Positions 2,547-19,582 of a DNA stretch of 20,421 nucleotides are shown piece by piece. Numbering within the stretch: the stretch's first letter is position 1; the number at the start of each line of letters is the position of its first letter. A program made the position numbers and the translations under genes. The DNA comes from a virus (taxonomy: Duplodnaviria > Heunggongvirae > Uroviricota > Caudoviricetes): the IMG/VR virus record IMGVR_UViG_2654587509_000002, one strand, 5' to 3'. The notes below the pieces were generated by a model. That model was not told the DNA's origin. It did not search any database and was given only the letters and a program-made list of their open reading frames with translations.

Positions 2547-2719
2547 TTCCTCGCACGATGTCTTAGCCACCGGATATCCCACAGGTGAGCCGTGTAATTG
2601 AAGGTTTTTACGTCAGATTCTTTTGGGATTGGCTTGCGTTTATTTCTGGAGCGTTTCGTTGGAAGGTATTTGCAGTTTTCGCAGATGATGTCGGTGATAC
2701 TTCGTCGCTGTCGTCTCAT
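2543..2719 (-). CDS. ninE: NinE
   Basis: 58 aa [58 protein letters not shown], recalled as lambda NinE; internal start within the 88-aa ORF. Confidence 0.75.
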
Positions 2720-3243
2720 GCCGCCCTCCTGACGCCCTGCCCGATCGCCATCAATGCCGCTTTGGATACGGTAGTAAACATCCGTCGAGGACTGATGAAC
2801 GGTCGCCAAATCAGCAGCATGGAACCTTTGCTGTTTCCCTTCTTCTCCAGCCCTGTCGATGGTTCGATAAAATTAATCCGTCCATCAGTGATAATACGAA
2901 CTTCGTCAACACTCTCCAGAGCCTTGCTGAACCATCCGACAGACATATCCTCTGGCACAAGCATCACTACCGTCTGTCGCTGTTGTATGCACTGCTCAGC
3001 GGCTTTTTCCACCCACGGCCTGATATTGCTGTACGGTGGGTTATTCCAGATTGCACCGTGGCTTACCCACTCAGAATTGAGCGCGTCGTCGGCCTCAGTT
3101 AACCAGTGAGCGCACAGAGCATTTTTGTCGCTCGCTGCCGAATCCAGCCAGAATCCAAACTCAATATCCAGTGCATCAAAAAGCCAAAGCGGCGTTTGCC
3201 AGCAGTCCTTGTCGTGTGCTGGCGTATTTGATTTGATAGTCAT
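2716..3243 (-). CDS. Phage Dam-type DNA N6-adenine methyltransferase
   Basis: 175 aa from [31 protein letters not shown]...; NPPY catalytic motif (AIWNNPPYS); occupies the lambda ninC position; ATGA overlap with the ninB stop. Confidence 0.8.
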
Positions 3244-3680
3244 GCAGCCCGATCTCCCCATCTCGCTTTCCACTCCAGAGCCAGTCTCGCTTCGTCTGAC
3301 CACTTAACGCCACGCTCTGTACCGAATGCCTGTATAAGCTCTAATAGCTCCGCAAATTCGCCTACACGCATCCTGCTGGTTGACTGGCCTATTACCACAA
3401 AGCCATTCCCGGCAAGGTTAGGAACAACATCCTGCTGCTTTAATGCTGCGGTAAACACACACTTCCAGCTTTCTGCATCCAGCCAGCGACCATGCCATTC
3501 AACCTGACGAGAGACGTCACCTAAGCAGGCCCATAGCTTCCTATTTTGGTCTAAGCTGCGGTTGCGTTCCTGAATGGTTACTACGATTGGTTTGGTTGGG
3601 TCTGGAAGGATTTGCTGTACTGCGTGAATAGCGTTTTGCTGATGTGCTGGAGATCGAATTTCAAAGGTTAGTTTTTTCAT
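3240..3680 (-). CDS. ninB: NinB (Orf) recombination mediator
   Basis: 146 aa from MKKLTFEIRSPAHQQNAIHAVQQILPDPTKP...; matches lambda NinB as recalled. Confidence 0.9.
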   Translation of the reverse strand: MKKLTFEIRSPAHQQNAIHAVQQILPDPTKPIVVTIQERNRSLDQNRKLWACLGDVSRQVEWHGRWLDAESWKCVFTAALKQQDVVPNLAGNGFVVIGQSTSRMRVGEFAELLELIQAFGTERGVKWSDEARLALEWKARWGDRAA

Positions 3681-6083: not shown

Positions 6084-7439
<1,356 letters not shown>

Positions 7440-7792: not shown

Positions 7793-8116
7793 ATGGATGC
7801 ACAAACACGCCGCCGCGAACGTCGCGCAGAGAAACAGGCTCAATGGAAAGTAGCAAATCCCCTGTTGGTTGGGGTAAGCGCAAAACCAGTTAACCGCCCT
7901 ATTCTCTCGCTGAATCGCAAACCGAAATCACGAGTAGAAAGCGCACTGAATCCGATAGACCTTACAGTGCTGGCTGAATACCACGAACAGATTGAAAGCA
8001 ACCTGCAACGTATTGAGCGCAAGAATCAGCGCACATGGTACAGCAAGCCTGGCGAACGCGGCATAACATGCAGTGGACGCCAGAAAATTAAGGGAAAATC
8101 GATTCCTCTTACCTAG
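7793..8116 (+). CDS. N: Antitermination protein N
   Basis: 107 aa MDAQTRRRERRAEKQAQWK...; arginine-rich motif at the N-terminus; lambda N length; the ORF-track 5' extension is rejected. Confidence 0.95.
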   Translation: MDAQTRRRERRAEKQAQWKVANPLLVGVSAKPVNRPILSLNRKPKSRVESALNPIDLTVLAEYHEQIESNLQRIERKNQRTWYSKPGERGITCSGRQKIKGKSIPLT

Positions 8117-8671
8117 TTACTTAGATATTGGCCTTGGCTTTATCTCAATATTATATGGATCATAGCTGGCAACTAATTCAGTCCAGTAAATATCCTCAAT
8201 AGGGAATAATATATGCTTCCCGTTCCATCGGGAAAAAGTTTTGTTCAACACACCAAGCTCAATCAACTCACTAATGTATGGGAATTGTTTTGATGTAACC
8301 ACATACTTCCTGCCTTCATTAAGGGCTGCGCACAAAACCATAGATTGCTCTTCTGTAAGGTTTTGAATTACCGATCGCACTTTATCGTTTTGCATCTTAA
8401 TGCGTTTTCTTAGCTTAAATCGCTTATATTTGGCGCTGGCAATAGCTGATAATCGATGCACATTAATTGCTAGCGAAAATGCAAGAGCAAAGACGAAAAC
8501 ATGCCACACATGAGGAATACCGATTCTCTCATTAACATATTCAGGCCAGTTATCTGGGCTTAAAAGCAGAAGTCCAACCCAGATAACGATCATATACATG
8601 GTTCTCTCCAGAGGTTCATTACTGAACACTCGTCCGAGAATAACGAGTGGATCCATTTCTATACTCATCAA
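8117..8671 (-). CDS. sieB: Superinfection exclusion protein B (SieB)
   Basis: 184 aa MMSIEMDPLVILGRVFSNEPLERTMYMIVIWVGLLLL... with hydrophobic segments; transcribed opposite to N, as in lambda. Confidence 0.8.
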   Translation of the reverse strand: MMSIEMDPLVILGRVFSNEPLERTMYMIVIWVGLLLLSPDNWPEYVNERIGIPHVWHVFVFALAFSLAINVHRLSAIASAKYKRFKLRKRIKMQNDKVRSVIQNLTEEQSMVLCAALNEGRKYVVTSKQFPYISELIELGVLNKTFSRWNGKHILFPIEDIYWTELVASYDPYNIEIKPRPISK

Positions 8672-8795
8672 ACTGTAGGGGTTGTAATAGTTTATCCGAT
8701 TTCTCGCTGTAGGGGTACACGAGAACCACCGAGCCTGATGTGGTTAAAAGACAGGCACAATCTTTACTACCGCAATCCACTATTTAAGGTGATAT

Positions 8796-8882
8796 ATGGA
8801 AGAAGAATTTGAAGAGTTCGAAGAGCATCCGCAGGATGTAATGGAACAGTACCAGGACTATCCGTATGACTACGACTATTGA
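8796..8882 (+). CDS. Small acidic ORF (lambda orf28-like), 28 aa
   Basis: Hand translation MEEEFEEFEEHPQDVMEQYQDYPYDYDY; overlaps the ral start; below the ORF-track size cutoff. Confidence 0.5.
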   Translation: MEEEFEEFEEHPQDVMEQYQDYPYDYDY

Positions 8883-9045
8883 TAAGAATCAATGGTGTGG
8901 ACAATTCAAGCGATGCAATGGATGCAAGCTGCAATCGGAATGCATGGTTAAGCCTGAAGAAATGTTTCCTGTAATAGAAGATGGGAAATATGTCGATAAA
9001 TGGGCAATACGAACGACGGCAATGATTGCCAGAGAACTTGGTTAA
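8866..9045 (+). CDS. ral: Restriction alleviation protein Ral, apparently shortened by 7 residues
   Basis: Hand translation MTTTIDKNQWCGQFKRCNGCKLQSECMVKPEEMFPVIEDGKYVDKWAIRTTAMIARELG then TAA; the in-frame continuation QNNKAA-TGA resembles the lambda Ral C-terminus as recalled. Confidence 0.8.
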   Translation: MTTTIDKNQWCGQFKRCNGCKLQSECMVKPEEMFPVIEDGKYVDKWAIRTTAMIARELG

Positions 9046-9165
9046 CAGAACAACAAAGCTGCCTGATAGTGGCCTTTATTTTTGGCATAAATAACAGAAT
9101 AAACACTGCACTGAACCGCCCCGGGAATCCTGGAGACTAAACTCCCTGAGAAAGAGGTAAACAGG

Positions 9166-9492
9166 ATGACTAAAAATACTCGTTTTTCCCCTGAAGTCCG
9201 TCAACGGGCAGCCCGTATGGTTCTGGAAAGTCAGGGCGAATATGACTCACAATGGGCGACAATTTGTTCCATTGCTCCAAAGATTGGCTGTACGCCGGAG
9301 ACTCTGCGTGTCTGGGTTCGCCAGCATGAGCGGGATACCGGGGGCGGTGATGGAGGGCTCACCACCGCTGAACGTCAGCGTCTGAAAGAGCTGGAGCGTG
9401 AAAATCGTGAACTGCGCCGCAGTAACGATATCCTTCGCCAGGCTTCCGCTTATTTTGCGAAGGCGGAGTTCGACCGCCTCTGGAAAAAATAA
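9166..9492 (+). CDS. IS629 transposase OrfA (HTH and leucine-zipper subunit)
   Basis: 108 aa [55 protein letters not shown]...; ends in an A6 run just before orfB. Confidence 0.9.
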
Positions 9493-10379
9493 TGCCGCTG
9501 CTGGATAAGCTGCGTGAGCAGTACGGGGTCGGACCGCTATGCAGCGAACTGCATATTGCCCCGTCAACGTATTACCACTGTCAGCAACAGCGACATCATC
9601 CGGATAAACGCAGTGCCCGTGCGCAGCGCGATGACTGGCTGAAGAAAGAGATACAGCGCGTATACGATGAAAATCACAAGGTATACGGTGTGCGTAAAGT
9701 CTGGCGTCAGTTGTTACGGGAAGGAATCAGAGTGGCCAGATGCACTGTGGCACGTCTCATGGCGGTTATGGGACTTGCCGGTGTTCTCCGGGGTAAAAAG
9801 GTCCGCACTACCGTCAGCCGGAAAGCCGTTGCCGCATGCGACCGCGTAAACCGTCAGTTCGTGGCAGAACGTCCAGACCAGTTGTGGGTGGCTGATTTTA
9901 CCTGGGTAAGCACATGGCAGGGCTTCGTTTATGTGGCGTTCATCATTGATGTGTTCGCCGGATACATCGTGGGATGGCAGGTCTCATCATCCATGGAAAC
10001 AACATTCGTGCTGGATGCACTGGAGCAGGCGTTGTGGGCCCGTCGGCCGTCCGGCACAATCCATCACAGTGATAAAGGTTCTCAGTATGTATCGCTGGCC
10101 TACACGCAGCGGCTTAAGGAAGCCGGATTACTGGCATCAACAGGGAGTACTGGCGACTCGTATGACAACGCGATGGCGGAGAGCATCAATGGTCTTTACA
10201 AAGCGGAGGTAATACACCGTAAGAGCTGGAAAAACCGTGCAGAAGTGGAACTGGCCACACTCACGTGGGTGGACTGGTATAACAATCGACGATTGCTGGA
10301 AAGGCTGGGCCATACTCCCCCGGCAGAAGCAGAAAAAGCTTATTATGCTTCCATCGGAAACGATGATCTGGCAGCCTGA
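9492..10379 (+). CDS. IS629 transposase OrfB (DDE catalytic domain), normally expressed as an OrfAB fusion by -1 frameshift
   Basis: 295 aa, in the -1 frame relative to orfA and overlapping its stop; IS3-family integrase-core motifs (HSDKGSQY..., ...ESINGLYKAE). Confidence 0.9.
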   Translation: MPLLDKLREQYGVGPLCSELHIAPSTYYHCQQQRHHPDKRSARAQRDDWLKKEIQRVYDENHKVYGVRKVWRQLLREGIRVARCTVARLMAVMGLAGVLRGKKVRTTVSRKAVAACDRVNRQFVAERPDQLWVADFTWVSTWQGFVYVAFIIDVFAGYIVGWQVSSSMETTFVLDALEQALWARRPSGTIHHSDKGSQYVSLAYTQRLKEAGLLASTGSTGDSYDNAMAESINGLYKAEVIHRKSWKNRAEVELATLTWVDWYNNRRLLERLGHTPPAEAEKAYYASIGNDDLAA

Positions 10380-10421
10380 GTTCACAGATAAAACACTCTC
10401 CAGGAAACCCGGGGCGGTTCA

Positions 10422-10610
10422 CTGCGTGTGTGGGTTCGTCAGCATGAGCGGGATACCGGGAGTGGTGATGGTGGACTCACCACCGCTGAACGTCAGCGTC
10501 TGAAAGAGCTGGAACGTGAAAATCGTGAACTGCGCCGCAGTAACGATATCCTTCGCCAGGCTTCCGCTTATTTTGCGAAGGCGGAGTTCGACCGCCTCTG
10601 GAAAAAATAA
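10422..10610 (+). pseudogene. IS629 orfA remnant (C-terminal 62 codons, no native start)
   Basis: In-frame continuation of orfA codons from the truncation point; the ORF track shows it only via a GTG start at 10428. Confidence 0.8.
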
Positions 10611-11497
10611 TGCCGCTGCTGGATAAGCTGCGTGAGCAGTACGGGGTCGGACCGGTATGCAGTGAACTGCATATTGCCCCGTCAACGTATTACCACTGTC
10701 AGCAACAGCGACATCATCCTGATAAACGCAGTGCCCGTGCTCAGCGCGATGACTGGCTGAAGAGAGAGATACAGCGCGTATACGATGAAAATCATCAGGT
10801 GTACGGTGTGCGTAAAGTCTGGCGCCAGTTGTTACGCGAAGGTATCAGGGTGGCCAGATGTACAGTGGCGCGCCTCATGGCGGTTATGGGACTTGCCGGT
10901 GTTCTCCGGGGTAAAAAGGTCCGTACTACCGTCAGCCGGAAAGCCGTTTCCGCAGGCGACCGCGTAAACCGTCAGTTCGTGGCAGAACGTCCTGACCAGC
11001 TGTGGGTGGCTGATTTTACTTACGTCAGCACATGGCAGGGCTTCGTCTATGTGGCGTTCATCATTGATGTGTTTGCCGGATGTATCGTGGGGTGGCGAGT
11101 CTCATCGTCTATGGAAACGACATTCGTGCTGGATGCACTGGAGCAGGCGTTGTGGGCCCGTCGGCCGTCCGGCACAGTCCATCACAGTGATAAAGGTTCT
11201 CAGTATGTATCACTGGCCTATACGGAGCGACTAAAAGAAGCAAAACTGCTGGCATCAACAGGGAGTACAGGTGACTCGTATGACAACGCGATGGCGGAGA
11301 GCATCAATGGTCTTTACAAAGCGGAGGTAATACACCGTAAGAGCTGGAAAAACCGTGCAGAAGTGGAACTGGCCACACTCACGTGGGTGGACTGGTATAA
11401 CAATCGACGATTGCTGGGAAGGCTGGGTCATATCCCTCCGGCAGAAGCAGAAAAAGCTTATTATGCTTCCATCAGAAACGATGATCTGGCAGCCTGA
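10610..11497 (+). CDS. IS629 OrfB, second copy (intact frame; expression doubtful because orfA is truncated)
   Basis: 295 aa, about 95% identical to the first OrfB with scattered substitutions (for example K52R, W138Y, Y158C). Confidence 0.8.
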   Translation: MPLLDKLREQYGVGPVCSELHIAPSTYYHCQQQRHHPDKRSARAQRDDWLKREIQRVYDENHQVYGVRKVWRQLLREGIRVARCTVARLMAVMGLAGVLRGKKVRTTVSRKAVSAGDRVNRQFVAERPDQLWVADFTYVSTWQGFVYVAFIIDVFAGCIVGWRVSSSMETTFVLDALEQALWARRPSGTVHHSDKGSQYVSLAYTERLKEAKLLASTGSTGDSYDNAMAESINGLYKAEVIHRKSWKNRAEVELATLTWVDWYNNRRLLGRLGHIPPAEAEKAYYASIRNDDLAA

Positions 11498-11539
11498 GTT
11501 CACAGATAAAACACTCTCCAGGAAAACCGGGGCGGTTCA

Positions 11540-11953
11540 GGGCTGTATTCCAATGCCACGTTGACAGATGCTGACCCTCAGGCAATTGAAGATGCCATTA
11601 ATGACCTCGAAGACATGATGGCAGCATGGCAGGCTAAAGGTATCGAGCTTGGATATCAGTTTGCTGATACAGAAAACGGCATCATGCCGTTACCTGACGA
11701 TGATTCAGGTATCCCTGCGTGGGCAAATGATGGCGTCGCTTTGAAGCTCGCTGTGCAAGTGTGCATGGATAACGTCATTCAGCCGTCAGATGCTCTCCTT
11801 ACCGCTGCTGACAGCGCATATCAGACAATCTGCATCGCTTTAACCAAAATACCACCACTTGAGCGGCGAAATGACATGCCTCGCGGTAGTGGTAACAAAA
11901 GCGCGTTTACGTGGAATCGGTTTTACATCGAGAAAGATGATCCAAGTACGTGA
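11540..11953 (+). pseudogene. gp4: P22-like gene 4 (head completion / tail accessory protein), 5'-truncated by IS629
   Basis: Frame is open from the IS boundary (GLYSNATLTDADPQAIEDAINDLEDMMAAW...), 137 codons remaining; no start codon with a ribosome-binding site; followed by gene 10 as in P22. Confidence 0.7.
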
Positions 11954-12103: not shown

Positions 12104-12688
12104 ATGCTTTCTGAGAATGCTAAAGATATACCTGGATTTGAAGGTGTTTATGCCGTAACAGAAGATGGCAGGGTATATTCTCACTCACGTGTTGTTAAGG
12201 CTGCGCATGGCAGCACGCAACTCAGAAAGGGGCGCTGGTTAAAGCCTAAAATCAATCAGGGAAGGGTGCTTTATAATATCGGAGCAAAATGGACTTTTGC
12301 CCATCGAATCGTTGCAATGACATTCCTGCCAAATCCTGAAAACAAGCCTCAGGTAAATCATATTGATGGCAATCCACTCAATAATAACGTCAATAATCTT
12401 GAGTGGTGCACTCAAAGCGAAAACATCAAACATGCATACGCCACCGGATTAAAGAAACCAATCAAGTTTTTCGGAACCAAGCACCCAAAACACAAGTTGA
12501 GTGATGACGATGTTCTTGCAATCAAGTCATCAAAAGAAAGCTTGTCAGTAATTGCGGCTAAGTACGGGATATCTAAGACCTGGGCAAGTAGGCTAAAGCG
12601 TGATGCTAACTGGGTTCATATAAAGGTTGATTCCAATGGCAATACAACAACTACCACTAATGAAGGGATTGGGGAAAAGTGCGGTTAA
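12104..12688 (+). CDS. HNH homing-endonuclease-like protein (NUMOD4-like N-terminus plus HNH motif)
   Basis: 194 aa; AAGGAG ribosome-binding site; GFEGVYAVTEDGRVYS (NUMOD4-like), HRIVAMTF...VNHIDGNPLNNNVNNLEWCTQSENIKHA (HNH); AT-rich; 3' end overlaps the gene 10 start. Confidence 0.8.
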   Translation: MLSENAKDIPGFEGVYAVTEDGRVYSHSRVVKAAHGSTQLRKGRWLKPKINQGRVLYNIGAKWTFAHRIVAMTFLPNPENKPQVNHIDGNPLNNNVNNLEWCTQSENIKHAYATGLKKPIKFFGTKHPKHKLSDDDVLAIKSSKESLSVIAAKYGISKTWASRLKRDANWVHIKVDSNGNTTTTTNEGIGEKCG

Positions 12689-19192: not shown

Positions 19193-19582
19193 CTAACATT
19201 TTCTTTTTACTTTTCCAACAAAAGCTTTGGTTGAATCCATATTTCCATAACCGGAAATGGTTTTTGACATTAAAACTGTTCCAGTAGGATGTATTACCCA
19301 TGAGTCGATAACGCGTTGAGTTTCGCCATTCGCGCCGATTCCTATGATGGAGTTTTTAGACAATGCTTTGTAAGCCATGCCGCCCGCATCTGTCCCAGAA
19401 TATGTGATGCTGGCATCTTCACCGTTTGTCTTAATGATGAATGTTCCACTAAAACCATCTTCTTCCGGATGGAAATTATTTCGTTCTGAATAGCTTATTC
19501 CGCGCATATCTCCAACGACCCAGCACTCTGCTGTAGCCCCAAAAGATATGAATAAGAACATAGCAGTAAGAAATTGCTTCAC
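19193..19582 (-). CDS. Secreted (periplasmic) protein of unknown function, 129 aa, paralog of the cI-linked gene at 7035
   Basis: GTG start preceded by a strong ribosome-binding site (TAAGGAGGttggcGTG); signal peptide MKQFLTAMFLFISFGATA then ECW; shared motifs with 7035-7439 (ECW[IV]V, TNGED/INGD, Y.ALS, [ST]W.I, STK[AS]FVG.V, C-terminal Cys). Confidence 0.7.
   Translation of the reverse strand: MKQFLTAMFLFISFGATAECWVVGDMRGISYSERNNFHPEEDGFSGTFIIKTNGEDASITYSGTDAGGMAYKALSKNSIIGIGANGETQRVIDSWVIHPTGTVLMSKTISGYGNMDSTKAFVGKVKRKC

Follow-up and report, generated by a model that had tools for sequence, protein, structure and literature searches.

Is the ral gene of this prophage cut short by damage, or does it represent a form of the gene that is naturally short? 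The question is raised by a 20,421-nucleotide stretch of caudoviral DNA (IMG/VR record IMGVR_UViG_2654587509_000002, hereafter the window), in which the ral frame runs into an ochre codon before it reaches the stop known from lambda. Ral turns the EcoKI-type (type IA) maintenance methyltransferase into a de novo methyltransferase, and unmodified incoming DNA is then modified instead of cut, as described in the reviews PMC3874165 and PMC12707154.

The ral frame and its comparison with lambda

The short gene occupies positions 8866–9045 of the (+) strand (59 codons and TAA) and was identified from the list of open reading frames, its translation and Pfam family PF11058 (Ral). Translation of 8866–9066 (+) gives MTTTIDKNQWCGQFKRCNGCKLQSECMVKPEEMFPVIEDGKYVDKWAIRTTAMIARELG, a stop, the residues QNNKAA and a second stop. 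The codons at the 3' end are GGT (9040–9042), TAA (9043–9045), CAG AAC AAC AAA GCT GCC (9046–9063) and TGA (9064–9066), and the product is a protein of 59 aa with the C-terminus ...TAMIARELG, just as the original prediction had read the frame. The stretch 9046–9066 (+), which alignment and translation identify as the former last six codons and the old TGA stop, is now untranslated and retains the lambda sequence.

The alignment with lambda (NC_001416) accounts for the difference in length. Lambda Ral (NP_040622) has 66 aa with a lysine at codon 60 and terminates in ...ARELGKQNNKAA; the reference thus does not end at ...RELG, and the longer ending given for it in the original prediction is the correct one. 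Within the last 40 bases of ral, the sole difference between the two sequences falls on the first base of codon 60, the ochre codon at 9043–9045 (+), where the window has T and lambda has A. A single A-to-T change, from AAA (Lys) to TAA, therefore ends the protein at Gly59 rather than at Ala66, and this one substitution explains the loss of seven residues, as had been proposed. All 21 bases 3' of the TAA are identical to those of lambda, so the in-frame continuation reflects homology and not chance. The alignment of 8796–9165 revealed only two other differences in ral: codon 7 has G where lambda has A, a synonymous change, and codon 37 (8974–8976, +) reads ATA where lambda has ATG. The latter (M37I) is the only amino-acid difference from lambda within residues 1–59, and it falls at a family position that is variable (M, I, F, K, R).

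The protein of the window is a significant match to PF11058 (146.5 bits against a cut-off of 25, E = 1.7e-43), covering profile positions 1–59 of 66 and thus short of a full-length match, whereas lambda Ral covers positions 1–66; the short form scores 16 bits below the long form. NCBIfam holds no model for Ral.

Distribution and haplotypes of the TAA allele

To determine how common the two alleles are, we searched with allele-specific 41-mers carrying the polymorphic base at position 17, where every possible 28-base megablast seed spans the polymorphism and a match therefore reports the allele. Among 5,426 complete E. coli genomes, TAA was found in 64 and AAA in 609, so that about one in ten lambda-type ral copies in these genomes (~10%) ends at the ochre codon. 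The E. coli isolates carrying ral alleles came from humans, cattle, pigs, poultry and water. Within the phage collection, TAA is carried by mEp332 (two records), SfI of Shigella flexneri (two records) and phi458, and AAA by 40 records. The closest phage record to our sequence is mEp332 (99.4% identity), in which the TAA is present and the ral CDS is annotated with 180 nt; the ral of SfI is annotated as a 59-aa restriction alleviation protein. The Ral proteins of mEp332, SfI and phi458 and the 59-aa entries of RefSeq share with the window both the TAA allele and the length of 59 aa, and mEp332 Ral differs in having M37 and I53, where the window has I37. RefSeq/PGAP labels both forms 'antirestriction Ral family protein', with the prefix 'MULTISPECIES:' on the 59-aa entries. 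The exact 59-aa protein of the window occurs in 370 contigs and the 59-aa form with M37 in at least 1,000.

A protein search of IMG/VR yielded no loci other than those matching lambda Ral at 100% identity, and exact allele-specific DNA patterns were used there instead. These located the exact TAA 32-mer in 28 contigs, about ten of them of 38–56 kb and many of whole-prophage length, and the AAA form in at least 81 contigs, with 404 Ral-encoding stretches as the denominator. The phage collection also holds MW057783.1, 'Campylobacter phage CJLB-4' (48,361 bp), whose match to this lambda-type ral region spans the whole 315-base query at 98.1% identity, the value obtained for lambda itself; it is probably a lambda contamination or a mislabelled record.

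These data show that the short allele is widespread, natural and already catalogued, an ordinary polymorphism rather than a product of prophage decay. The TAA is shared with viable phages, E. coli genomes and IMG/VR contigs, which shows that the prophage inherited it and did not acquire it in place by decay. The ral of the window is a lambda-type restriction-alleviation gene in a common, naturally circulating short form. The original prediction had left two possibilities side by side, a neutral polymorphism or a partial decay of the function; the former fits these data, and decay in this prophage does not, since the same allele is found in viable phages, 64 E. coli genomes and 28 IMG/VR contigs. 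A stop that is premature relative to the lambda reference is here a standing allele, and neither annotation as a pseudogene nor an interpretation as decay is warranted.

We also considered whether the stop could be private damage, either a sequencing error or a pseudogenisation in this one prophage. In favour of this stands the clear rearrangement of the prophage, with an IS629 element beginning 66 bp 3' of the TAA and a truncated gp4 tail gene beyond it. Isolated phages and hundreds of independently assembled sequences, however, have the identical base, and several E. coli chromosomes with intact downstream genes ea10-cIII-kil-gam-bet-exo match window positions 8600–9113 at 100% identity. The population data rule out private decay or sequencing error, and we give this explanation practically no weight.

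The ral genes of all fetched loci were then compared as haplotypes, and 27 complete copies carried the TAA. The allele occurs on at least eight nucleotide haplotypes, which differ at ral positions 20, 21, 45, 63, 78, 100, 111, 114, 120 and 159, and it is always linked to a lambda-like 3' end (186C, 192A). This linkage pattern fits one origin of the TAA followed by recombination, and a recurrent origin is also possible. Codon 60 is a sense codon in the homologs of other genera, so TAA is the derived state. In 26 of the 27 complete TAA copies the other 59 codons remain open, the exception (L091) having a second stop, G19*; the region of the former tail, 3' of the TAA, shows no substitution in any of the 27. 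The substitutions private to TAA haplotypes amount to three synonymous against three non-synonymous or nonsense changes, six events that are too few to reveal purifying selection.

Conservation of the Ral core and the lost tail

To locate the missing residues within the family, we used alignments of 32–38 members from Escherichia, Salmonella, Citrobacter, Kluyvera, Cronobacter, Proteus, Providencia, Pantoea and Erwinia. The invariant and near-invariant columns extend from M1 through L58, with none beyond, and include C11, C17, C20, C26, W46, R49, T50, T51, M53, I54 and R56. The core residues defined by these alignments (C11, C17, C20, C26, P30, D44, W46, R49, T50, T51, M53, I54, R56 and L58) are all present in the Ral of the window. 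The tail after REL varies both in length (3, 6, 7, 8 or 9 residues) and in sequence, with endings such as GKQNNKAA, KKLNEAA, ENQKKQQDA, EKLKAA, EQQKNEHS, AAM and AAK. The truncation thus takes away only a variable, polar C-terminal tail and leaves the conserved core whole, to ...MIAREL. The four cysteines that are invariant in the family, the region of W46 and R49 and the ...RTTAMIAREL helix are all kept.

The reading we favour, and consider probable, is a length polymorphism that is neutral or nearly so and retains Ral activity, because the conserved core is complete and phages isolated as viable carry the allele. The short Ral would then most probably still do the work of Ral. The literature searched contained no published functional test of a 59-aa Ral; for restriction alleviation as such, the plating assay of Loenen and Murray (1986) reported a rescue of about 800-fold. 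Whether Ral needs its last seven residues bears on what the minimal functional Ral is, in a protein that has no solved structure; a sequence search of the PDB likewise found no solved relative.

A natural parallel to the short form is found in Pantoea and Erwinia, whose Ral proteins also have 59 aa, with short tails (RELAAM or RELAAK) and the same conserved core as in the window. They share about 70–74% identity with the Ral of the window, have an N-terminus shorter by two residues and carry three residues after REL instead of one, so that they end two residues past the stop of the window, and their shortening is independent of it. These homologs bear on a second reading, in which the short allele is a hypomorph or a null. 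The target of Ral is HsdM, a subunit of the type IA (EcoKI-family) enzymes, and a trimmed C-terminal helix could weaken the interaction of Ral with HsdM or the fold of Ral itself; the allele would then spread because ral is accessory and often unselected, for instance in hosts without a type IA system. As ral is non-essential, hitch-hiking is another way in which a weakened allele could spread.

Several observations point in the direction of such a loss. The AlphaFold model, built from a 32-sequence alignment, predicts one helix at residues 45–65, from which the truncation would trim the last one to two turns; its mean pLDDT is 64.5, with values below 50 at residues 14–25, the cysteine cluster, and the model was kept out of fold searches and used as weak support for the C-terminal helix only. 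The Pfam model takes in all 66 positions, those that the short form lacks among them, and the scores of the two forms differ by the 16 bits given above. Outside Pantoea and Erwinia, all enterobacterial lineages keep six to nine residues after REL, and most tails of the family follow a Lys/Gln-rich pattern (x-K/N-Q/L-K), which indicates that the tail is not random. The one-residue tail of the window is shorter than that of any separate lineage, where the minimum is three, and one TAA copy carries a second stop. On the other hand, the allele makes up a tenth of the lambda-type ral genes in complete E. coli genomes and is carried by three independently isolated phages, its copies are otherwise intact in all but one case and on several haplotypes, and 59-aa homologs exist naturally in Pantoea and Erwinia. 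We therefore regard an impaired Ral as the main alternative, though a somewhat unlikely one, to a neutral polymorphism that retains activity.

The composition of the lost residues suggests a third reading, in which the truncation alters the dosage of Ral and not its activity. ClpXP reads ssrA-like C-terminal signals of the ClpX C-motif 1 type, and the -KAA end of the long form resembles such a signal in sequence; its loss would stabilise Ral and could strengthen or prolong restriction alleviation. If true, an adaptive advantage of this kind would explain the spread of the TAA over several haplotypes and over phages of both E. coli and Shigella. An AA end is indeed found in 38 of the 72 family sequences in which the core is retained, but most of these are fragments or variants of the lambda-type GKQNNKAA end and do not represent independent lineages. 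Moreover, many homologs end in -HS, -TA, -AI, -AT, -AAS or -AAM, and the -AA end is thus not conserved. The literature yielded nothing on the turnover of Ral. We consider a change in dosage very unlikely, and the same holds for the short allele being adaptive through a stabilised Ral.

The four cysteines of the core deserve a separate mention. C11, C17, C20 and C26 (window 8896–8943, residues 11–26) are invariant across the Ral family with the spacing CX5CX2CX5C, a pattern that suggests a candidate zinc-binding knuckle. No metal site is mentioned in the passages on Ral consulted in PMC3874165 and PMC12707154.

Neighbouring genes and the rearranged junction

Upstream of ral, the window shows the synteny of the lambdoid leftward early (pL) operon. 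The N antiterminator (7793–8116, +; Pfam N36 and lambda synteny) lies in the same operon, sieB (8117–8671, −; Pfam SieB and lambda annotation) separates N from ral on the other strand, an arrangement shared with lambda, and a homolog of orf28 (8796–8882, +; list of open reading frames and lambda alignment) encodes an acidic peptide of 28 aa, the end of whose gene overlaps the start of ral as it does in lambda. The peptide, MEEEFEEFEEHPQDVMEQYQDYPYDYDY, is highly acidic and belongs to no Pfam family, and its gene differs from that of lambda only at third codon positions. The locus is thus like that of lambda in its residues 1–59 apart from M37I, in its place after N, sieB and orf28, in the overlap with orf28 and in a 3' flank that is identical up to an IS629 insertion; it is unlike it in lacking KQNNKAA and in having IS629 in place of the downstream ea10 and recombination genes.

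A weak terminator-like hairpin (five pairs) with a T run spans the old TGA (9058–9073, +). The consensus scan that detected it gave one site against 0.4 expected, and thus no evidence of function. The idea that a stop shifted upstream might alter termination at this hairpin was dropped, as the stem has only five pairs, lambda has the same hairpin and pL transcripts are N-antiterminated.

The original prediction had also linked the truncation to an adenine methyltransferase encoded by the prophage itself, a connection for which we found no support. The gene in question (2716–3303) encodes an ordinary phage Dam of the nin region (Pfam Dam, PF05869). Such a Dam is not known to supply the EcoKI-type modification promoted by Ral, so its presence is no ground for expecting ral to be dispensable.

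The similarity to lambda breaks off near position 9113, where ea10 and the genes beyond it are replaced by a complete IS629-type element of the IS3 family (9112–10421, +; 1,310 bp), recognised from its inverted repeats and Pfam matches. The element has the features of the IS629 type, namely a length of about 1.3 kb, terminal inverted repeats (29 nt, 90% complementary), an orfA with a helix-turn-helix (HTH_Tnp_1) and an orfB with an integrase core (rve); in RefSeq, matching copies carry the name 'IS3-like element IS1203 family transposase'. It is abutted by a second IS629 copy (10422–11539), which is 97% identical and lacks the first ~192 bp, and no target-site duplication was found at the pair (9112–11539). 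The next gene (11561–11953) is a homolog of the P22 tail-accessory protein gp4 that is truncated at its 5' end, the Pfam match starting at profile position 27. P22-like tail and ejection genes follow, and these late genes now share their strand with the early-left operon (N to ral). The region 9112–11560 looks like an IS-associated inversion or rearrangement, and the prophage is rearranged and probably defective.

This rearrangement is separate from the ral stop, and the stop came first. Neither the 5,426 complete E. coli genomes nor the GTDB species-representative genomes contained the junction of ral and IS629; one complete E. coli record covers more than 80% of the junction query, in a different arrangement. 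A search with the whole window returned matches to half of the window only.

We also detected other small genes in the window. In the P22-like tail module, the gp4 and gp10 homologs are separated by an open reading frame resembling HNH/NUMOD4 homing endonucleases (12104–12688). In addition, two small paralogous frames with signal-peptide-like N-termini (7035–7439, +, and 19193–19582, −) share 27% identity (E = 2e-12); a Pfam scan of a longer reading of the first (6963–7436) gave no match. The first paralog directly follows a cI-like repressor, in the position of rex in lambda, and the second follows the ejection-protein genes. Both may be candidate moron or exclusion genes.
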